Below, piece after piece: positions 15,782 through 24,569 of a stretch of DNA of 64,000 nt (position 1 is its first letter; each line of letters begins with the position of its first letter). Where the stretch lies: positions 23,813 through 87,812 of the forward strand of contig DASYZZ010000019.1 of assembly GCA_035945695.1 (NCBI GenBank), in the 5' to 3' direction. The notes beneath the pieces were generated by a model. It was not told the origin of the DNA. It worked only from the letters and a program-made list of their open reading frames with translations, and ran no database searches. The translations under genes and the position numbers were made by a program. This DNA is from Candidatus Sulfotelmatobacter sp. (GTDB lineage Bacteria > Acidobacteriota > Terriglobia > Terriglobales > Acidobacteriaceae).

Positions 15782-16675
15782 TTGGGTATACAAACTCTGA
15801 AAGCGGTGCGCAACCGGTACTTCGGGGGACCCGGGCCTTTGTACGTCAAGCCGAAAACTTTGCAGGAAGCTGTTTCTGTGCTGGCTTCGTCCGGCGGTCA
15901 GGTTCTGGCCGGCGGGACCGACTTCTATCCTGCCTTCGGAGAGCGCCTGCCCGCAGGCGACGTCGTCGACATTAGCTCTGTGCGTGAAATGCGCGGGATA
16001 TCCTTTGAACCCGACTGGGTCCGCATCGGTGCGCTCACCACTTGGACCGACGTGGTCCGAACTCCCTTGCCTCGATGTTTCGACGGCCTCAAGGCGGCAG
16101 GGCGTGAAATCGGTTCGGTGCAGATTCAGAACCGCGGGACCGTCGCCGGTAACTTGTGCAACGCATCCCCTGCGGCTGACGGAGTGCCCCCGTTGCTCGC
16201 GCTGGATGCGGAGGTCGAACTCACTTCAGCGAACGACACGCGGCGGATGCAGCTCGATCGATTCATCACGGGCAATCGAAAAACTGTGAAGAGACCGGAA
16301 GAAATTCTGACCGCCGTCCTCGTGCCGCGAACCGCAGAGGATGCGGCCTCCACATTCCTGAAACTCGGCGCGCGCAGATATCTTGTCATTTCAATTTCGA
16401 TGGTCGCGGTTGTCTTACAAAAAGACCACGCCGGCCAGATCGCGCAGGCGCGTGTTGCGGTCGGATCGTGCTCGGCGGTCGCGCGGCGACTGACCGATCT
16501 GGAAAAGAATCTGCTTGGCCGGCCCGCGAAAACTGGCATTTCAGAGTTCATCACTCCGGCGCATCTTTCGCCCCTGTCTCCAATCGACGATGTGCGGGCC
16601 ACGGCTTCATATCGGCGCGACGCATCGTTGACTCTGGTCCGGCGTGGACTCGAAGCCTGCGCGAGGAGCCTCTGA
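15782..16675 (+). CDS. Xanthine-dehydrogenase-family FAD-binding (CoxM-like) subunit
   Basis: KPKTLQEAVSVLASSGGQVLAGGTDFYP (FAD_binding_5 signature) and GSVQIQNRGTVAGNLCNASPAAD. The start is ambiguous: TTG 15782 or in-frame GTG 15806. Confidence 0.85.
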   Translation: MGIQTLKAVRNRYFGGPGPLYVKPKTLQEAVSVLASSGGQVLAGGTDFYPAFGERLPAGDVVDISSVREMRGISFEPDWVRIGALTTWTDVVRTPLPRCFDGLKAAGREIGSVQIQNRGTVAGNLCNASPAADGVPPLLALDAEVELTSANDTRRMQLDRFITGNRKTVKRPEEILTAVLVPRTAEDAASTFLKLGARRYLVISISMVAVVLQKDHAGQIAQARVAVGSCSAVARRLTDLEKNLLGRPAKTGISEFITPAHLSPLSPIDDVRATASYRRDASLTLVRRGLEACARSL

Positions 16676-16676
16676 C

Positions 16677-19463
16677 GTGGCCGAGATCCAGAACATTCCG
16701 ATCCAGGCTGGCGCCGAATTGATTTTGTTCTCGGTCAACGGGCATCGCGCTGAAGTGACCGCTTCTGACGCGCGGAGACTGTCGAGAGTCCTGCGCGAGG
16801 ATCTCGGCCTGACCGGAACCAAAGTTGGATGCGACGCCGGCGACTGCGGCGCTTGCACCGTGCTTCTGAATGGCGATCCGGTGTGCTCGTGCCTGGTGGC
16901 CGCGGGACAAGTCGCCGGATGCGAAATCACCACCGTAGAAGGACTGGCGAATCGATCTCCGCTGACGGGACGATTGCAGAAATCTTTTTTGTCGCAGGGA
17001 GCGGCACAGTGCGGAGCCTGCACTCCGGGAATGCTTGTTGCCGCCACTTCCCTGCTCGAAAGGAATCCACATCCGAGTGAAACCGAAGTGTTGGATGCGA
17101 TCGGTGGCGTGTTGTGCCGCTGTACCGGATATCGCAAGATCGTCACCGCGATCCTGAACGTCGATACGGAAACAGGGTCGTGTTCTCCGGACGCCGGAGC
17201 AGCGGTTGGGACACGTTTAGTACGACTCGACGGACAGAAGAAAATAGATGGCAGAGAAATCTTCGGAGCCGACGAGATTCCGGCAGGAACGTTGGGAGCG
17301 CGGGCGATCCGCAGTCCGCATCACCGCGCTCGTTTTGAGTTTGGCGATCTGAAGCAATTCGTGGCTTCGCATCCCGGCGTCGAACTTGTCCTTACGGCGC
17401 GAGACGTTCCGGGCGTCGATTGCTACGGCGTCATCCCCAGATTCGCCGATCAGCCGGTATTCGCGCATCGTGAGGCACGCTACCGCGGCGAGGCGGTCGC
17501 CGCGGTCGTGGGCGAAGCGGAGGCGCTGGAAGCACTCGATATTTTTGAGTTTCCCGTGAAGTGGGAAACGTTACCCGCTACTCAGACAATCGAAGAAGCT
17601 CTCGCCGATGACGCCGAGCCAATTCACGGCAATCGTAAGCAGAACGTGCTGGTGCGTGGTCGCGTCGTCTGCGGCGATGTCGATCACGCGCTCGCTAGTG
17701 CTGATGTTGTTGTGGAAGGCGAATACGAGACGGGATTCGTCGAGCACGCCTACATCGAGCCCGAAGCCGGTTTCGCACGCAGAGTCGGCGACACGATTGA
17801 GATTCAGGCATGCACGCAATCTCCGTACATGGACCGGGCGGACATCGCGAAGATACTCGGGATCGATCAGGAGAAAGTTCGAATCATCCCGACTGCGGTC
17901 GGGGGCGGATTCGGGTCGAAGCTGGACCTGTCGGTACAGCCGTTCATTGCGCTGGCGGCGTGGAAATTGAATCGCCCGGTGCGGATGGTGTACTCCCGAA
18001 CCGAATCCATCATCTCGACGACGAAACGGCATCCGGCAAAGATGAAGCTGCGCACCGGAGCAATGCGCGATGGGCAGATCACCGCGCTCGATTTCACGGC
18101 TGACTTCAACACGGGCGCGTACTCTTCGTGGGGACCGACGGTCGCCGGGCGCGTCCCGGTGCATGCGTCGGGTCCGTACCGCGTTCCGAATTATCGGGCG
18201 TTGACTCGCGCTGTGCACACCAACATTGTTCCCGCGGGAGCGTTTCGCGGATTCGGCGTGCCACAGGCGGCGATCGCGCAGGAACAGATTTATGACGAAC
18301 TGGCCGACCGCATTGGAATGGATCGTCTGGAGTTTCGCATCCTGAACGCGCTCGAAAACAACTCGCCGACGGTGACGGGCCAAGTGTTAGGTGAGGGCGT
18401 CGGTATTCGCGCCTGCTTTGAAGCATTGCGGCCGAACTGGAAAGCGACGCGCGAAGGTGCGGCGGAGTTCAACGCACGTAAAGAAGGACCGTTGCGCCGC
18501 GGCGTGGGAGTCGCGGGAATGTGGTACGGATGCGGCAACACATCATTGCCGAATCCGTCGACGGTGCGCATTGGACTGAAGCGCGATGGCAGAATCGCGT
18601 TGCATCAGGGAGCGGTCGATATCGGCCAAGGCTCGAACACGATCGTGACGCAGATCTGCGCGGACGCACTCGGAGCGCCGATCTCGCAGTTCGACCTCGT
18701 TTCAGGCGATACGGCCATCACGCCGGATTGCGGTAAGACATCGGCTTCGCGCCAGACATTTGTAACCGGCAAAGCGGCGCACATGGCTGGGAGCAAGCTG
18801 CGCGAGGGAATTCTAAAACTCGCGGGATCCTGCAAGTGCGGCTCGATTCAATTCGAAGACGGCAGTATCAGCGTTAGTGAAAAGGGAAAAGTTAATCCCA
18901 TTTCGCTTCAAAATTTGCCGCTCGACAAGTTTGGATATGTGATCACTTGTGAGGCGACATTCGATCCGCCAATTACGCCGCTCGATGAAAATGGCCAGGG
19001 AAATCCGTACGCGGTTTATGGATTCGGCGCCCACATGGCAGAGATCGAAGTGGACATCGAACTTGGAACCGTGCGCGTGCTGAAGGTTACCGCGGCGCAC
19101 GATGTTGGGCGCGCGATCAATCCGATGTTGATCGAAGGGCAGATTGAAGGTGGCGTTGCTCAGGGACTCGGCATGGCCTTGATGGAAGAATTCTTCCCCG
19201 GCAAGGGCGAGAATCTCCACGACTATCTGATTCCCTCGGCGGGAGATGTTCCTCCGATCGAATCGATTTTGATCGAAGATCCATCTTCGATCGGGCCCTT
19301 CGGCGCAAAAGGAATTGGAGAGCAAGCCGTGATCCCAACCGCGCCGGCGATTCTCAACGCGATTCACGATGCGGTCGGCGTGCGTATCCACCGAGTGCCA
19401 GCCACGCCCGATCGCGTGCGAGCAGCAATTCTCTCGAAAGCAACCGGAGGCGCGCGTGGCTGA
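16677..19463 (+). CDS. Xanthine-dehydrogenase-family fused [2Fe-2S] (CoxS-like) plus molybdopterin-binding (CoxL-like) subunit
   Basis: N-terminus: GCDAGDCGACTV...CSC and QCGACTPGM...CRCTGY (two 2Fe-2S motifs). The rest: PTAVGGGFGSKLD, AFRGFGVPQA, GAKGIGEQAV (Moco-hydroxylase motifs). I prefer GTG 16677, 1 nt after the upstream TGA (16673-16675), over the track start 16644. Confidence 0.9.
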   Translation: MAEIQNIPIQAGAELILFSVNGHRAEVTASDARRLSRVLREDLGLTGTKVGCDAGDCGACTVLLNGDPVCSCLVAAGQVAGCEITTVEGLANRSPLTGRLQKSFLSQGAAQCGACTPGMLVAATSLLERNPHPSETEVLDAIGGVLCRCTGYRKIVTAILNVDTETGSCSPDAGAAVGTRLVRLDGQKKIDGREIFGADEIPAGTLGARAIRSPHHRARFEFGDLKQFVASHPGVELVLTARDVPGVDCYGVIPRFADQPVFAHREARYRGEAVAAVVGEAEALEALDIFEFPVKWETLPATQTIEEALADDAEPIHGNRKQNVLVRGRVVCGDVDHALASADVVVEGEYETGFVEHAYIEPEAGFARRVGDTIEIQACTQSPYMDRADIAKILGIDQEKVRIIPTAVGGGFGSKLDLSVQPFIALAAWKLNRPVRMVYSRTESIISTTKRHPAKMKLRTGAMRDGQITALDFTADFNTGAYSSWGPTVAGRVPVHASGPYRVPNYRALTRAVHTNIVPAGAFRGFGVPQAAIAQEQIYDELADRIGMDRLEFRILNALENNSPTVTGQVLGEGVGIRACFEALRPNWKATREGAAEFNARKEGPLRRGVGVAGMWYGCGNTSLPNPSTVRIGLKRDGRIALHQGAVDIGQGSNTIVTQICADALGAPISQFDLVSGDTAITPDCGKTSASRQTFVTGKAAHMAGSKLREGILKLAGSCKCGSIQFEDGSISVSEKGKVNPISLQNLPLDKFGYVITCEATFDPPITPLDENGQGNPYAVYGFGAHMAEIEVDIELGTVRVLKVTAAHDVGRAINPMLIEGQIEGGVAQGLGMALMEEFFPGKGENLHDYLIPSAGDVPPIESILIEDPSSIGPFGAKGIGEQAVIPTAPAILNAIHDAVGVRIHRVPATPDRVRAAILSKATGGARG

Positions 19464-20922
19464 CGACGCGATCCGCTGCGATGCCTGCCCTGTGCTCTGC
19501 TACATCAAACCGGGACGCACGGGCTCGTGTGATCGCTACGGGAATCACGACGGCAAATTGGTGAGGCTCGATCCGCACGTGGTGCTCGATCGCGCAGTCG
19601 AACGCGGAGACTCGGTGGTCCCATTTCTCGAACGCAGCCGCGACTGGGACGGAACGCTGGTGAGCCACGGCCAAACGTTCGTGACCGCAATTGGAGCGGG
19701 CACGACTTACCCGGATTACAAGCCCGCGCCGTTCATCATCTCGTCGCAGATCGAAGGCGTGGACATGGTCACGGTCGTGACCGAAGGAATCTTCAGCTAC
19801 TGCGGCGTGAAGTTGAAGATCGACACCGATCGCCATCTTGGTGCGGAATGCAGCACGGTGCGGGCTCAGGGCGAAGCGGTTGGGCACGTCACGACCAGCG
19901 AATACGGTTCGCAGATGCTCTCGCTGGGCGGCGTGCGACATTTGACCGGAGGCAGCCGGCAGGAAGGAACCGCGACCTGCGACGCCCTCCTGAATCTGTG
20001 CAATGGCAATCCGGTCGAACTGAAGATTGATGATGGAGCGAAAGTGGTTGTGCAGGCCGGCAAGGCTCCGGTTGTCGATGGAGTGCAGGAAGAGAGAATG
20101 CGCGTGGGCTGCGGTTCGGCGACGATCGGCATGTTCGCCAAACAATGGTTCGGGAAAGTGGACGACGTTGTTGTCGTCGACGATCACATCACCGGAGTTC
20201 TCTCGGAGCATCAGGCCGGCAAGTTGCTTGGCGTGCGGGAAACCGGGATCAAGCTGAAAGGAAGGCGCTCCACGCCTGGAAGATATTTTCAGGTTGCAGA
20301 GCCGGGAACCTCGTGGGGCGGAACAGATATCGATGATCCGCTGGAAATTCTAGGAAAGTTCAACCCAAAGAAAGCGTGGCCTGGATTGCGGCTGCTGATG
20401 GTCAGCACAACCGGCGAGCATCACGCATACTTCGAACTGGACGAAGACCTGAAGCCGCGCGAAAAGGAATTGCCCAAGAATTTGAAGCAGTCTGTCGCGC
20501 GCATCCGCGAGAACTGTGAGCCGGCGTTGTGCACGGTCCTTTTTATGGGCGGTGCGGGCGGATCGTTGCGGGCCGGCGTGACCGAAAATCCGGTGAAGCT
20601 GACGCATTCTGTCGGGGACGCACTCACTCGCGTCACCTGTGGTGGCGCTCCGGTGTATATCTGGCCTGGGGGCGGAATCACGTTTATGGTGGATGTGACG
20701 CGGATGCCACAGAACGCGTTCGGATACGTGCCAACTCCCGCGCTGGTGGCTCCGATTGAATTCACGCTGAAGCTTTCCGACTATGCTGAACTTGGCGGAT
20801 ATGTGGAAAGCGTTCGTCCGTTAAGCTCGATCGTTTCGAATGCAGACGGGAGAAGGCGAGTGACAGCCCACGCGGAGAATCCATGGCCGCTCGAAGCAGG
20901 ATCGAAGGTAAAAAGAAAATGA
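19456..20922 (+). CDS. 6-hydroxynicotinate-reductase-like Fe-S protein
   Basis: About 488 aa. N-terminal Cys motif IRCDACPVLCYIKPGRTGSCDRYGN. The overall pattern matches what I recall of proteins annotated 6-hydroxynicotinate reductase (Hnr). GTG 19456 overlaps the upstream stop (19461-19463). Confidence 0.7.
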   Translation: MADDAIRCDACPVLCYIKPGRTGSCDRYGNHDGKLVRLDPHVVLDRAVERGDSVVPFLERSRDWDGTLVSHGQTFVTAIGAGTTYPDYKPAPFIISSQIEGVDMVTVVTEGIFSYCGVKLKIDTDRHLGAECSTVRAQGEAVGHVTTSEYGSQMLSLGGVRHLTGGSRQEGTATCDALLNLCNGNPVELKIDDGAKVVVQAGKAPVVDGVQEERMRVGCGSATIGMFAKQWFGKVDDVVVVDDHITGVLSEHQAGKLLGVRETGIKLKGRRSTPGRYFQVAEPGTSWGGTDIDDPLEILGKFNPKKAWPGLRLLMVSTTGEHHAYFELDEDLKPREKELPKNLKQSVARIRENCEPALCTVLFMGGAGGSLRAGVTENPVKLTHSVGDALTRVTCGGAPVYIWPGGGITFMVDVTRMPQNAFGYVPTPALVAPIEFTLKLSDYAELGGYVESVRPLSSIVSNADGRRRVTAHAENPWPLEAGSKVKRK

Positions 20923-21818
20923 ATTCGCGCGCCCAGATTCGAATGTTGCCGGACGGGCGGCGGCTGCACTTGCAGGATGGTCCGATCGATTTGATCGTCG
21001 AGGCGTTTGGCCGCCCGGAAGATGTGCAGTGCGCGTATGACGCGGCGTGCGCGCGGTTTGTGAACGTGCTGAACGAATTGTGCAGCGAGTTGGCATTTCT
21101 GCGCACGGCTTGCACTGCCGACTGCGATTGGCCTGGCGGTTCAGTGGCGCGGCGTATGACGGCTGCAGTCAGTCCCTACGCTGGCGAATTCTTTATCACA
21201 CCGATGGCGGCTGTGGCTGGAGCCGTTGCGGAAGAGATTCTGGCGGCTATGCTCTCGGCTGCGACGCTTTCGCGCGCTTACGTAAATGATGGAGGAGACA
21301 TCGCGCTGCATGTGGGCAAGGGAGAAAAGTTTGTGATCGGGATGGTGGAACGTCCGGATCGCCCTTCGCTGTTTGGAACTACGACGATTCGGTGCGAAGA
21401 TCCGGTGCGCGGGATCGCCACGAGCGGCTGGCGCGGGCGCAGCTTTTCACTGGGAATCGCAGATGCTGTCACGGTGCTGGCCGATCGCGCCGCTGCGGCC
21501 GATGCGGCCGCGACCATCATCGCGAATGCTGTGGACTTGCCCGGGCATCCGGCGATTATGCGGATTGCTGCGTGCGAACTTGCTCCTGACAGCGATCTCG
21601 GGGCGCGCCTGGTCACGCAGAACGTTGGACCGTTAACAGCCGCCGAAATCGACGAAGCACTCGCAGCGGGAGTTGCGACCGCGGAGAAACTGCTCAGGAT
21701 TGGTTTGATTCGAGGCGCGGCGCTGAATCTTGAGGGACAGACCCGTGTGGTCGGAGGCGTTGGTGCGCGAAGCATGATTTTCGCTGGCGTTGAGGAAAGG
21801 AATCTCGTTCATGCCTGA
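20919..21818 (+). CDS. UPF0280 family protein (ApbE-like superfamily), function unknown
   Basis: ATG 20919 forms an ATGA overlap with the Hnr-like stop (20920-20922). ITPMAAVAGAVAEEI and GIATSGWRGRSFSLGIADAVTV resemble UPF0280/ApbE-like cores. Family call from memory. Confidence 0.62.
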   Translation: MNSRAQIRMLPDGRRLHLQDGPIDLIVEAFGRPEDVQCAYDAACARFVNVLNELCSELAFLRTACTADCDWPGGSVARRMTAAVSPYAGEFFITPMAAVAGAVAEEILAAMLSAATLSRAYVNDGGDIALHVGKGEKFVIGMVERPDRPSLFGTTTIRCEDPVRGIATSGWRGRSFSLGIADAVTVLADRAAAADAAATIIANAVDLPGHPAIMRIAACELAPDSDLGARLVTQNVGPLTAAEIDEALAAGVATAEKLLRIGLIRGAALNLEGQTRVVGGVGARSMIFAGVEERNLVHA

Positions 21819-22395
21819 GGTGGTCATACGAAAGAGACTCACCTGTGTTGAGGCGATTTTTCACGAAGGCGGTGCGGTGGCGGCAAAGCCACTGCGGCGC
21901 GCGGCGATGCTGACGGTTATTCGAAATCCGTTTGCGGGATCGTACTTCGAAGACATCGCCAGCTTCATGGACGATCTGAAGCCTCTTGGTCTCGACATGG
22001 CGCGGAGGCTCGTTGCCGCGCTGGGCGGCGACGCGAAGATCGTCGAAGGCTACGGCAAAGGCGCGATCGTTGGATCGGCGGGAGAGATCGAGCATGGGGC
22101 GCTGTGGCACGTGCCCGGCGGGTACGGGATGCGTGAGGTGCTCGGCGGGGCGAAGGCGATTGTGGCGTCGACGAAGAAAGTCGGCGGACCGGGGACGCGG
22201 CTCGATATTCCGATCACGCACATCAACGCGTCGTACGTGAGGAGCCATTTCGATGCGATGGAAGTCGGCGTTCCGGATGCGCCGCGAGCCGACGAAATCG
22301 TGCTGGCGCTGGTGATGACTACTGGTGCTCGCGTCCATGCGCGGGTTGGCGGGCTGAAGGCTTCGGAGATCAAGGGCGAAGACGGGCTGAGGTGA
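21811..22395 (+). CDS. Amino-acid-synthesis family protein (DUF1185), copy 1
   Basis: ATG 21811 overlaps the upstream stop (21816-21818). AAMLTVIRNPFAGSYFEDI, GYGKGAIVGSAGEIEHGA, DIPITHINASYVRSHFDAMEV, GGLKASEIKGEDGLR. Confidence 0.8.
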   Translation: MPEVVIRKRLTCVEAIFHEGGAVAAKPLRRAAMLTVIRNPFAGSYFEDIASFMDDLKPLGLDMARRLVAALGGDAKIVEGYGKGAIVGSAGEIEHGALWHVPGGYGMREVLGGAKAIVASTKKVGGPGTRLDIPITHINASYVRSHFDAMEVGVPDAPRADEIVLALVMTTGARVHARVGGLKASEIKGEDGLR

Positions 22396-22402
22396 GAGCA
22401 CG

Positions 22403-22987
22403 ATGAAAGCGAAGATCCGCAAGATCGCGACGTTTGTGGAAGAGACGCTGAGGGAGATGGATCGCGAGATTTCTCCTCCGACGCGGAAGGCTGCGGCCGT
22501 GGCCGTGATTGAGAATCCGTGCGCGGGAAAATATGTGGAGGATCTCTCGGAGTTGATGGCTATCGGCGAAGAGTTGGGCGAGATGCTCACATCGCGCGCT
22601 GTCGCGGCGCTCGGGATTGCTGGGCCGTCGGCGGAAAGTTATGGCAAAGCCGCGGCGGTTGGCGAGAACGGCGAACTGGAACATGCGGCTGCGATTCTGC
22701 ATCCGAAGCTGGGGACGCCGGTGCGGCGCGTGCTGGGCAAGGGCGCGGCGCTGATCCCTTCGTCGAAGAAGCGCGGCGGGCTGGGAACGGTGCTCGATAT
22801 TCCGCTCGGCCACAAGGACGCGGCGTTCGTGCGGAGTCACTTTGACGGGATGGAAGTGCAGTTGAACGATGCGCCGCGGGCAAATGAAATTATGGTTGCT
22901 GTCGCGGTGACGGATAGCGGGCGTCCGCTGGCGCGCGTCGGCGGATTGACGAAGAATCAGATCAAGGGCGAGGACGGGTTGCGGTAA
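22403..22987 (+). CDS. Amino-acid-synthesis family protein (DUF1185), copy 2
   Basis: Paralogue of the previous gene: AAAVAVIENPCAGKYVEDL, SYGKAAAVGENGELEHAA, DIPLGHKDAAFVRSHFDGMEV, GGLTKNQIKGEDGLR. 7-nt gap to copy 1. Confidence 0.8.
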   Translation: MKAKIRKIATFVEETLREMDREISPPTRKAAAVAVIENPCAGKYVEDLSELMAIGEELGEMLTSRAVAALGIAGPSAESYGKAAAVGENGELEHAAAILHPKLGTPVRRVLGKGAALIPSSKKRGGLGTVLDIPLGHKDAAFVRSHFDGMEVQLNDAPRANEIMVAVAVTDSGRPLARVGGLTKNQIKGEDGLR

Positions 22988-22991
22988 AGCT

Positions 22992-23009
22992 GTCGCGCTT
23001 ACGCGCGAC
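22992..23009. terminator. Hairpin between convergent gene ends
   Basis: GTCGCGC-TTAC-GCGCGAC, a perfect 7-bp stem with a 4-nt loop, lying between stops at 22987 (+) and 23032 (-). No flanking T-tract. Confidence 0.4.
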
Positions 23010-23031
23010 CGGACAGCCGAGGCGGTTGTCG

Positions 23032-24228
23032 CTACGCTCGCACAACTTCCGGAACACGCGTTGCTGGCGGCGTGTTGCGGCTGCGCTGGATGCTGACTGC
23101 GCCGTCGGTGACTACCATGGCGACTCCGGGCAGGTCTCCTTTTTGAATGCTGTCGAGGAGATTTTTTCCTGACGACTGCTGCGCGGTGTCGAGGAGGACG
23201 AAGCTGGCTTCGCGGCCGGGAGTGATCCATCCGCAGTTGAGGCTGCGCATCTTCGCCGTGTTGCCGGTTGCGAGGCAGATCGCCTGCTCGGCAGGAATCT
23301 CACCCAGAGAAGAAAGCATCGAGATCATCCGCAGAATTCCTAACGGCTGCACGCCCGATCCGGCTGGCGAATCTGTGCCGAGGATCACGCGATCGAGTTG
23401 CTTCAGCGACTTTGCGGTGCGCAAGGCGAGAAGGGCGGCGCGCTCGTTTCCGTTGTGAACGATCTCGAGGGCGCGCGGAGATTTTTCGCAGAGGGCGACG
23501 ATCTGGTCGTCGGGGAGCGCGGTGTGGCCTCCGTTGACGTGGCCGATGACGTCGGCGTCGGTTTCGAGGACCATGTCTTTGTCGATGAGGCTGGAGCCGG
23601 GGATCGACGGGCCGCCGGTATGGATCGTGCTCTGGATGCCGTATTTGCGGGCCCAGGCGACCATGCGGCGTCCGGTGGTTCCGTCTTTGACGCTGCCGAG
23701 GCCGACTTCGCCGAGAAATTTCACGCCGGCGGCGGCGAGATCTTTGAAGTCATCTTCGACCATACCCTGCTCAAGCACGGGAGCGCCGGCGTAGATCTTG
23801 ACGCCGCCGGGACGGAAGGCGTGGAAGGCACGCTGCGCGAAGATGGCCATCGCCTTGAGGCCGACGATGTCTTTGGGACGTCCGGGCGTGTGGACTTCGC
23901 CGGCCGAGACCATCGTGGTGACGCCGCCGTGGAGACAGCTGTCGATCCAGCCGAGCTGATTCTGGCGGGGAGTCCAGTCGCCGCAGACGGGGTGAACGTG
24001 ACTGTCGATGAGTCCGGGAGCGAGCGCTGTGCCTTTGGCGTCGATCGTCGTGGTCGCTCCGGTTGTGTCGAGGTCTTTCTCTTTGCCCACCGAGTGAATC
24101 AAGCCGTCGATCGCAACGACAGTGTTGGCGTCGAGGATCGGGTGATCGAGGTCTCCGCTGAGAAGGAGTCCGATGTTGCGGATGACGAGCTTAGAAGTTG
24201 CCGCTTTGGCGGGAGTGTCGTGGCTCAT
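23032..24228 (-). CDS. Enamidase-like amidohydrolase (1,4,5,6-tetrahydro-6-oxonicotinate amidohydrolase family)
   Basis: 398 aa. LVIRNIGLLLSG...GLIDSHVHPVCGDW (HxH metal site), HGGVTTMVSAGE, IHTGGPSIPGSS, GHVNGGHTA, LGTDSPAGSG. The size and motif order are as I recall for enamidase. Confidence 0.75.
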   Translation of the reverse strand: MSHDTPAKAATSKLVIRNIGLLLSGDLDHPILDANTVVAIDGLIHSVGKEKDLDTTGATTTIDAKGTALAPGLIDSHVHPVCGDWTPRQNQLGWIDSCLHGGVTTMVSAGEVHTPGRPKDIVGLKAMAIFAQRAFHAFRPGGVKIYAGAPVLEQGMVEDDFKDLAAAGVKFLGEVGLGSVKDGTTGRRMVAWARKYGIQSTIHTGGPSIPGSSLIDKDMVLETDADVIGHVNGGHTALPDDQIVALCEKSPRALEIVHNGNERAALLALRTAKSLKQLDRVILGTDSPAGSGVQPLGILRMISMLSSLGEIPAEQAICLATGNTAKMRSLNCGWITPGREASFVLLDTAQQSSGKNLLDSIQKGDLPGVAMVVTDGAVSIQRSRNTPPATRVPEVVRA

Positions 24229-24399: not shown

Positions 24400-24569
24400 C
24401 AAGATTTTGCAGGCAAAATCTTGAAAACAAATCAGTTGCAAGCTCACCTGCGCGAAGATTTTTTCTGGTCGAGTCGCGCAAAATATTGTTTTCAAAGAAC
24501 TTATCGGATTCTAGCTGCCTAGTCTGCCTACAAAATCTTGAGACGCAGGGACTTACAGACAAAATCTTC
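24400..24569. promoter_or_regulatory. Array of six copies of a CAAAAT(C/A)TT(G/C) 10-mer, including one perfect inverted pair
   Basis: CAAGATTTTG (24400-09) CAGG CAAAATCTTG (24414-23). GAAGATTTT (24454-62, reverse orientation). CAAAATATTG (24479-88). CAAAATCTTG (24531-40). CAAAATCTTC (24560-69). Confidence 0.6.

Follow-up and report, generated by a model that had tools for sequence, protein, structure and literature searches.

A seven-gene cluster predicted to encode the ring-opening part of a reductive nicotinate pathway in the acidobacterial genus Candidatus Sulfotelmatobacter

The DNA analyzed here is a stretch of 64,000 nucleotides (nt) from the soil acidobacterium Candidatus Sulfotelmatobacter sp. 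(assembly GCA_035945695.1, contig DASYZZ010000019.1, positions 23,813–87,812), referred to as the window; unless a locus is named, positions are those of the window. It carries seven genes at 15782–24228 that probably encode the upper, ring-opening stage of reductive nicotinate breakdown as described for Eubacterium barkeri, Azorhizobium, and Bradyrhizobiaceae. Judging from sequence homology and gene order, we put the probability of this assignment at about 0.8. The products are predicted to be a two-gene molybdenum hydroxylase, homologues of 6-hydroxynicotinate reductase (Hnr) and enamidase (Ena), a UPF0280 protein, and two DUF1185 proteins.

Results and discussion

Counterparts of the seven proteins in E. 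barkeri

The nicotinate locus of E. barkeri VPI 5359 (locus L001) was fetched using the sequence of Protein Data Bank (PDB) entry 2VUN, the enamidase of this organism, as the query, and the seven window proteins were compared with it by tblastn. They matched seven places within this one cluster. The flavin adenine dinucleotide (FAD) subunit of the hydroxylase is 32% identical to NdhF (L001:5095-5901), and the large hydroxylase chain is collinear with the concatenated NdhS, NdhL, and NdhM subunits of nicotinate dehydrogenase (Ndh), with 41.5% identity across 899 columns. The 488-amino-acid (aa) protein is 41% identical to Hnr over 455 aa (L001:1830-3329; E values of 5e-94 and 1e-102), and the 398-aa protein is 45% identical to the enamidase (L001:10001-11155). 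The remaining three also have counterparts: the UPF0280 protein is 31% identical to the product of the gene directly 3' of hnr, and the two DUF1185 proteins are 47% (DUF1185-1) and 55% (DUF1185-2) identical to the copy directly after ena (L001:11191-11772). The original prediction, made from the letters of the DNA, had described a reductive nicotinate-type cluster with look-alikes of Ndh, Hnr, and enamidase. It depended on the resemblance of the 488-aa and 398-aa proteins to Hnr and enamidase, and it is borne out by homologues of all seven proteins in the E. barkeri cluster.

Organization of the cluster

A map of the open reading frames (ORFs) and a direct reading of the junctions show a plus-strand operon of six tightly coupled genes at 15782–22987, followed by a convergent amidohydrolase gene. 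The genes are as follows (XDH, xanthine dehydrogenase).

15782..16675, plus strand: FAD-binding subunit of an XDH-family molybdenum hydroxylase (NdhF equivalent), 297 aa; Pfam FAD_binding_5 and CO_deh_flav_C
16677..19463, plus strand: fused 2x[2Fe-2S] and molybdopterin subunit (equivalent of NdhS, NdhL, and NdhM), 928 aa; Pfam
19456..20922, plus strand: Hnr homologue, 488 aa; similarity to E. barkeri Hnr
20919..21818, plus strand: UPF0280 (ApbE-like) protein, 299 aa; NCBIfam NF003322
21811..22395, plus strand: DUF1185 (AA_synth) paralogue 1, 194 aa; Pfam PF06684
22403..22987, plus strand: DUF1185 (AA_synth) paralogue 2, 194 aa; Pfam PF06684
23032..24228, minus strand: homologue of enamidase (1,4,5,6-tetrahydro-6-oxonicotinate amidohydrolase), 398 aa; match to PDB 2VUN

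The stop codon of the FAD subunit gene (TGA, 16673–16675) is followed after 1 base by GTG 16677 of the molybdenum gene, whose own stop (TGA, 19461–19463) is overlapped by GTG 19456 of hnr. An ATGA at 20919–20922 joins hnr to the UPF0280 gene. ATG 21811 of the first DUF1185 gene overlaps the preceding TGA (21816–21818), giving an 8-nt overlap, and a 7-nt gap separates the stop of this gene (TGA, 22393–22395) from ATG 22403 of the second. The operon stop (22985–22987) and the end of the minus-strand amidohydrolase gene at 23032 leave a convergent gap of 44 nt. Each junction was thus found where the original prediction had placed it, and all seven reading frames are intact. The arrangement is far beyond chance; the order FAD subunit, FeS/Moco (iron–sulfur and molybdenum cofactor) chain, Hnr, UPF0280, DUF1185, DUF1185 recurs in all 80 related loci from soil metagenomes described below, as far as each contig extends.

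Molybdenum hydroxylase

The FAD subunit matched Pfam FAD_binding_5 (1e-39) and CO_deh_flav_C, and its identity is 68% to the copy in the syntenic locus L031 and 51% to that in the alphaproteobacterial locus L032. In the 928-aa chain, Pfam domains Fer2 and Fer2_2, the hammerhead domain Ald_Xan_dh_C, and MoCoBD_1/2 were found. Both GTG 16677 and GTG 16644 are possible starts of this protein. By parts, its tblastn identity to the E. barkeri enzyme is 48% for NdhS, 38–40% for NdhL, and 41% for NdhM, and the alignment with these subunits shows that the GAKGIGE motif, which bears the catalytic Glu in XDH-family enzymes, is retained. In a phmmer search, the chains of PDB 3HRD (A, B, and D) scored 269 bits for the L subunit, 238 for M, and 137 for S. 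The sum, 644 bits, is higher than that for any other solved XDH-family enzyme, and the best single chain, the aldehyde oxidoreductase MOP of Desulfovibrio gigas, reached 397 bits. Since the summed score exceeds that of the best single chain, the closest characterized relative is, by sequence, the nicotinate dehydrogenase of E. barkeri, though MOP also has the fused layout. The fusion of the Fe-S and Moco parts, which the original prediction regarded as a distinguishing trait of this locus, turned out to be the normal layout outside E. barkeri, as seen in L032 and in the isolate locus L022.

Hnr homologue

The Hnr family is compact, with 314 representatives at 50% identity (E ≤ 1e-30) among 1.84 billion sequences, and this compactness favors a single function. 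Twenty-six alphaproteobacterial records from a plasmid collection encode proteins 65–67% identical to the window protein, most of them labeled 6-hydroxynicotinate reductase by the Prokaryotic Genome Annotation Pipeline. Family alignments revealed invariant residues C8, C11, C15, and C25, the motif G218-C219-G220-S221-A222, and C354. The start at GTG 19456 is supported by the relative in locus L087, where a TTG at exactly the equivalent site is the sole start in the vicinity and a GTG lying 36 nt deeper in the gene is the single alternative.

Residues 1–60 of E. barkeri Hnr form a 2x[4Fe-4S] dicluster domain (Pfam Fer4). We take this domain to hold the two [4Fe-4S] clusters that the purified enzyme reportedly contains, and the enzyme presumably accepts electrons from ferredoxin through it. 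All other Firmicutes and deltaproteobacterial copies, of ~500 aa, also start with this domain. The window Hnr begins just past its position and so lacks the N-terminal ferredoxin domain, and the alphaproteobacterial proteins likewise lack it, with alignments beginning at query residue 1–6. Since the domain is missing, the electron donor of the window Hnr must, as far as the sequences tell, differ from that of the E. barkeri enzyme. Three long representatives of the family were noted: P0139 (982 aa) and P0146 (969 aa) carry the Hnr-like part at the C terminus, and P0184 (755 aa) carries it near the N terminus. Their fusion partners might give a hint to the electron donor.

Domain scans and a PDB sequence search assigned the window Hnr to no Pfam or NCBIfam family and to no PDB relative. 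The AlphaFold 2 model built from a 17-sequence alignment was poor, with a predicted local distance difference test score (pLDDT) of 62 and a predicted template modeling score (pTM) of 0.55, and Foldseek found nothing in the PDB at E ≤ 0.001. A profile search of the PDB with the Hnr alignment gave a sole match, to a Fer4 domain. It was rejected as coming from the anaerobe sequences in the alignment and not from the Hnr core.

UPF0280 protein as a candidate flavin-attachment factor

The protein encoded directly after hnr scored 412 bits against NCBIfam NF003322 (cut-off, 290). Of the 16 loci from isolates and metagenome-assembled genomes (MAGs) that have both genes, all but L009 place a homologue immediately behind hnr (15/16), and the same holds in the metagenome loci wherever the contig extends past hnr. 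In one locus, ~1.1 kb with an ORF of ~350–380 aa is inserted between the two genes and breaks their adjacency (L039:9473-10566).

The AlphaFold 2 model of the UPF0280 protein had a pLDDT of 88.6 and a pTM of 0.89. In a Foldseek search with this model, the first match was DVU1097 (1e-11), and ranks 3–41 were all ApbE, Ftp, or FmnB chains with probabilities of 0.99–1.00. The template modeling scores with these 39 flavin-transferase chains were ~0.4–0.5 at sequence identities of 10–16%. The UPF0280 protein thus has a fold in common with the ApbE/Ftp FAD:protein flavin mononucleotide transferases; it is closest to the uncharacterized DUF375 protein DVU1097 (PDB 2O34). At the sequence level, the window protein has no Pfam match, its sequence-profile matches to ApbE chains in the PDB are weak (E values of 0.01–0.24), the E. 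barkeri orthologue lies above the Pfam ApbE threshold (29.3 bits versus 25.6), and for the relative in L031 the precomputed family assignment is PF27030 (AbpE_bact).

Alhapel et al. are said to have found in 2006 that E. barkeri Hnr holds a covalently bound flavin. Because the model is confident and ApbE-like, the UPF0280 protein is likely to be a flavin-attachment factor for Hnr. The invariant GCGSA(T) segment of Hnr is a candidate attachment site, judging from its conservation; the motif in question, GCGSAT, presumably differs from the canonical acceptor motif of ApbE.

DUF1185 proteins

Both DUF1185 proteins matched Pfam PF06684 (2e-71 for DUF1185-1 and 4e-73 for DUF1185-2), and DUF1185-1 also matched PDB 3BYQ (8e-57). 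Each has its own orthologue in the Neorhizobium locus L033, at 79% identity for DUF1185-1 and 65% for DUF1185-2. Because these values exceed those of the cross-matches (46–50%), the two proteins are, by sequence comparison, distinct orthologues that diverged anciently.

The fold class of Bacillus chorismate mutase also includes the RidA/YjgF enamine/imine deaminases. Solved relatives of the DUF1185 proteins adopt a variant of the Bacillus chorismate mutase fold and have no known ligand (PMC2954203). One idea, prompted by the fold class in common with RidA/YjgF, is that the pair may handle the enamine arising from ring opening; another is a putative structural role together with Hnr.

Enamidase

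The 398-aa protein aligned end to end with the E. barkeri enamidase structure (PDB 2VUN; E = 5e-111), residues 12–395 on 2–385 and free of gaps; the second-best PDB match had an E value of 3e-6. The motifs of binuclear-metal amidohydrolases are kept (HxH, GEVGLG, HTGG, H(V/I)NGG, and G(T/N)D(S/A)P). The protein is the only enamidase homologue in the host genome, and hnr and the UPF0280 gene are likewise present in single copies (tblastn).

Upstream of the enamidase gene, five exact copies of CAAAATMTTS lie at 24400–24569 (0.5 expected by chance), 170–340 nt from the start codon, with an inverted pair at 24400–24423. This sequence was considered as an operator common to both transcription units and rejected, as no copy occurs upstream of the molybdenum hydroxylase operon. 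Scans for sigma-70 promoters and intrinsic terminators gave no more sites than in shuffled sequence, and the gap between the converging genes holds a 7-bp GC hairpin that does not stand out statistically (z = -1.3).

Conservation and distribution

More than 8000 close homologues were found in metagenomes. The metagenome scan yielded only close relatives (80–91% identical), which show synteny and add no depth to the alignments. In the 80 soil-metagenome loci, the order FAD subunit, FeS/Moco chain, Hnr, UPF0280, DUF1185-1, DUF1185-2 is invariant wherever the contig reaches. Identities across these loci are listed below. DUF1185-2 is the best conserved protein of the cluster, at or above the level of Hnr.

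DUF1185-2: 82–96%
Hnr: 80–91%
Enamidase: 76–92%
DUF1185-1: 80–89% (full-length matches)
FeS/Moco chain: 71–92%
UPF0280: 61–77%
FAD subunit: 61–77%

The enamidase gene is convergent in the soil loci as well and lies either adjacent to the operon or 1–3.5 kb away, with variable genes in between. These genes encode a TRZ/ATZ hydrolase, a metallo-beta-lactamase-fold protein, an isochorismatase, a NupC transporter, and a ureide-permease-like protein. The TRZ/ATZ-family amidohydrolase (~470 aa, deaminase/chlorohydrolase type) lies between DUF1185-2 and the enamidase in many close relatives, with examples at L069:12327-13787, L094:11142-12548, L100:10278-11687, and L104:11559-13160. It scored 454 bits against NF006549, below the cut-off of that family, and the gene is absent from the window. 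The neighbor recalls the 6-chloronicotinate chlorohydrolase gene beside the cluster of Bradyrhizobiaceae strain SG-6C (PMC3511419). Variable NupC-type, ureide-permease-like, and isochorismatase genes beside the enamidase gene were located at L069:15870-17105, L104:14848-15825, L044:14389-15018, and L031:16260-16874. The only NCBIfam match of the isochorismatase is to nicotinamidase/pyrazinamidase, a weak one (48 bits) that we count in favor of nicotinate. The soil contig L100 has, in addition, a reverse-transcriptase gene (RVT_1; L100:8515-9885) that has been inserted ahead of the extra amidohydrolase gene, separating it from DUF1185-2.

The closest relatives of the window are MAGs labeled Candidatus Sulfotelmatobacter. 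Hnr is present in 7/25 genomes of the genus and in none of 16 from the rest of the order, and in an even sample of the phylum (301 genomes from 185 genera), the host genus was the only one of the 185 with Hnr. The GC content of the cluster is 60.7%, compared with 57.6 ± 1.1% for the genome; this is in the top 0.26% of equal-sized windows, and the flanks have 56.6% and 55.9%, each under the genomic average. Because of the patchy spread confined to one genus of the sampled phylum, the high GC content, and the 65–67% identity to alphaproteobacterial Hnr, the cluster is probably an accessory trait that was gained horizontally within one acidobacterial genus and then retained patchily. Another genome of the genus has a broken hnr, with residues 1–288 and 275–485 encoded in two frames that overlap (G001:C11:132524-133994), which is a probable frameshift (pseudogene) or an assembly error.

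Proposed reactions

We propose the following reactions on the basis of homology. The two-gene molybdenum hydroxylase would convert nicotinate to 6-hydroxynicotinate. The Hnr homologue, in which one four-Cys cluster site is kept, would reduce 6-hydroxynicotinate to 1,4,5,6-tetrahydro-6-oxonicotinate. The lactam of this product would then be opened by the convergently encoded enamidase to yield 2-formylglutarate and ammonia. The ApbE-like UPF0280 protein may install the flavin on Hnr, as suggested by its fold and obligate adjacency. The two DUF1185 paralogues appear to be conserved core partners; a heteromer of the two may assist Hnr, or they may process the enamine/imine product. The fate of 2-formylglutarate and the electron donor of Hnr would differ from those in E. 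barkeri. The Hnr electron donor, flavin attachment, the role of DUF1185, and the consumption of 2-formylglutarate are questions for the whole family and are not particular to the window locus.

A more far-reaching proposal, which we consider a long shot, treats the Hnr devoid of a ferredoxin domain, the ApbE-like maturase, and the two DUF1185 proteins as a distinct "aerobic-type" reductase system. Translationally coupled to the molybdenum hydroxylase, the reductase would receive two electrons directly from it, so that a self-contained, redox-neutral complex would turn nicotinate and water into tetrahydro-6-oxonicotinate and need no carrier from outside. In this complex, the DUF1185 proteins would make up an obligatory structural or enamine-handling subunit.

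Evidence against the assignment and alternative explanations

Several points weigh against assigning the cluster to nicotinate breakdown. The substrate assignment for the enzymes of this clade draws on 41–45% identity to the E. barkeri enzymes and on synteny. The ferredoxin domain of Hnr is missing, as described above, and the TRZ/ATZ, NupC, and ureide-permease genes near the enamidase in relatives could point to other heterocycles. A flank scan revealed no transporter or regulator gene adjoining the cluster; the neighboring genes are those for a beta-lactamase-fold/DUF3471 protein, a TonB-type outer-membrane barrel, and proteins without an assigned family, and a lone nuoA.

The later steps are a further concern. 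The host genome comprises 4.05 Mb in 46 contigs and is 90.6% complete. Across the whole of it, tblastn gave no match to the late E. barkeri enzymes Mgm, Mii, the MutL-like protein, Hmd, and Dml, and only generic matches to Hgd (33%, 3-hydroxyisobutyrate-dehydrogenase type) and DmdAB (aconitase/isopropylmalate-isomerase family). Nicotinate breakdown in Azorhizobium reportedly follows a glutarate route. The host genome yielded no CsiD of the glutarate branch and no convincing glutaryl-CoA dehydrogenase; its four or five genes of the acyl-CoA dehydrogenase family include two short ones that resemble butyryl-CoA dehydrogenases. With the late enzymes, CsiD, and a clear glutaryl-CoA dehydrogenase all missing, no route for the carbon can be traced to its end. 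The original prediction had seen neither later-pathway genes nor an adjacent regulator gene in the window; the flank scan and tblastn agree on both counts, and extending the search for the downstream 2-formylglutarate steps to the genome brought up neither homologues of the B12-dependent branch of E. barkeri nor CsiD.

As to cofactors, the genome contains a homologue of selD (selenophosphate synthetase) outside the window, with one in-frame TGA (contig C12:5539-6564, L119). This TGA suggests a selenocysteine-containing SelD, and selenium metabolism therefore exists in the host genome. The nicotinate dehydrogenase of E. barkeri is selenium-dependent. Two XdhC-type genes are present elsewhere in the genome.

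The absence of the B12-dependent late pathway, a clear glutaryl-CoA dehydrogenase, and CsiD from a 90.6% complete genome, together with that of a dedicated transporter or regulator gene next to the cluster, would also fit a different role for the same chemistry: nitrogen scavenging or niacin detoxification instead of growth on nicotinate carbon, with the pathway stopping or joining generic enzymes after the release of ammonia. Kitts et al. reportedly traced the physiological benefit of nicotinate to Azorhizobium to the released ammonium in 1992, which we count in its favor. We hold this role to be possible, if somewhat doubtful, since the genome is incomplete, in 46 contigs, and a route that homology would not reveal could be completed by the generic Hgd homologues (33%) together with aldehyde dehydrogenases and acyl-CoA dehydrogenases of the short-chain type.

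The same enzymes may instead act on another N-heterocycle, if the specificity of the clade has shifted: a pyridine carboxylate, a 6-substituted nicotinate supplied through a deaminase or dechlorinase, or a compound that resembles purines or pyrimidines. The modest identity to the characterized enzymes leaves room for such a shift, and so do the extra genes of many relatives (TRZ/ATZ, NupC, ureide-permease-like, and metallo-beta-lactamase-fold) and the occurrence of HyuA/HyuB in place of enamidase in the alphaproteobacterial versions, judged from 9 kb of sequence to either side. We nevertheless regard another substrate as unlikely. The entire set of seven families is common to the biochemically defined E. 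barkeri cluster, and the Hnr family is small and strongly conserved (80–96% within the clade and 65–67% to Alphaproteobacteria). In L033, hnr stands beside a gene for a nonhomologous NicB-type hydroxylase; Hnr therefore appears tied to 6-hydroxynicotinate, whichever hydroxylase makes it. The TRZ/ATZ neighbor, absent from the window, fits a feeder role like that of the 6-chloronicotinate chlorohydrolase in strain SG-6C (PMC3511419).

Finally, the patchy spread within the genus, the split hnr of the relative G001, and the atypical GC content could be taken as signs of a decaying, nonfunctional relic of horizontal transfer, which is very improbable because none of the seven frames is disrupted, start and stop codons still overlap at the junctions, and the 61–96% protein identity and invariant order across 80 independent soil loci imply purifying selection.

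The nicotinate assignment extends the reductive (Hnr/enamidase) route to an abundant group of soil Acidobacteriota. It may be of use for annotation, as most proteins of these clusters are labeled "hypothetical," and it has a bearing on niacin turnover in soil. The scientific gain is modest, since the cluster type is already published.

Comparison with known nicotinate clusters

The nicotinate fermentation cluster of E. barkeri contains homologues of all seven genes, with UPF0280 as the next gene behind hnr and DUF1185 as the next behind ena, and its first three reactions would be the same as those at the window locus. The two clusters differ in several respects. The equivalents of NdhS, NdhL, and NdhM form one chain in the window, unlike in E. 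barkeri. Unlike E. barkeri Hnr, the window Hnr has a C-terminal tail of ~30 aa and no N-terminal 2x[4Fe-4S] domain. There are two DUF1185 paralogues, as against one in E. barkeri, and ena is convergent, whereas that of E. barkeri is co-directional. The LysR regulator, Hgd, and EIIC-like permease of the E. barkeri cluster have no counterpart in the window cluster, and the B12-dependent late pathway is missing from the genome.

The nic cluster of Pseudomonas putida KT2440 (NicAB, NicC, and NicX; aerobic maleamate route) has in common with the window locus the formation of 6-hydroxynicotinate by a molybdenum hydroxylase. NicAB differs in architecture from the window hydroxylase, and the later chemistry is altogether different: 6-hydroxynicotinate is oxidatively decarboxylated to 2,5-dihydroxypyridine, whose ring is then cleaved by a dioxygenase. 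A NicB-type gene is found beside hnr in the Neorhizobium locus L033; none is present in the window.

Two alphaproteobacterial plasmid loci were compared. L032, from Fuscovulum, encodes MarR, the FAD subunit, a fused FeS/Moco chain (885 aa), Hnr, UPF0280, one DUF1185 protein, and a Liv-type ABC transporter. Its gene order from the FAD subunit to the DUF1185 copy is the same as in the window, and its Hnr also lacks the ferredoxin domain. L033 encodes MarR, Hnr, UPF0280, and two DUF1185 proteins, and the NicB-type nicotinate hydroxylase gene nearby replaces the XDH-type pair. Proteobacterial clusters have an adjacent Liv-type ABC transporter and, in L032 and L033, a MarR regulator; the window has neither next to its genes. 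It also has a true enamidase, whereas L032 and L033 have HyuA/HyuB hydantoinase/oxoprolinase genes (L032:17986-19422 and L033:12629-16422) and no enamidase within 9 kb. HyuA/HyuB may represent an alternative, ATP-dependent opening of the lactam ring.

A reductive branch had seemed unexpected for a presumed aerobe in the original prediction. Such clusters are already published for Azorhizobium caulinodans and Bradyrhizobiaceae, and the tetrahydro-6-oxonicotinate route runs in the aerobic Azorhizobium (PMC3511419). Shettigar et al. (2012) described the cluster as conserved in A. caulinodans (AZC_2790-2804), Bradyrhizobium japonicum (blr3818-3830), Rhodopseudomonas palustris (HaA2), and Bradyrhizobiaceae strain SG-6C (PMC3511419). 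It combines the three pathway genes with UPF0280 and DUF1185, as does the window locus. This proteobacterial nicotinate cluster is the closest described kind, and the window locus, with an acidobacterium as its host in place of a proteobacterium, is a further example of the proteobacterial type in Acidobacteriota.

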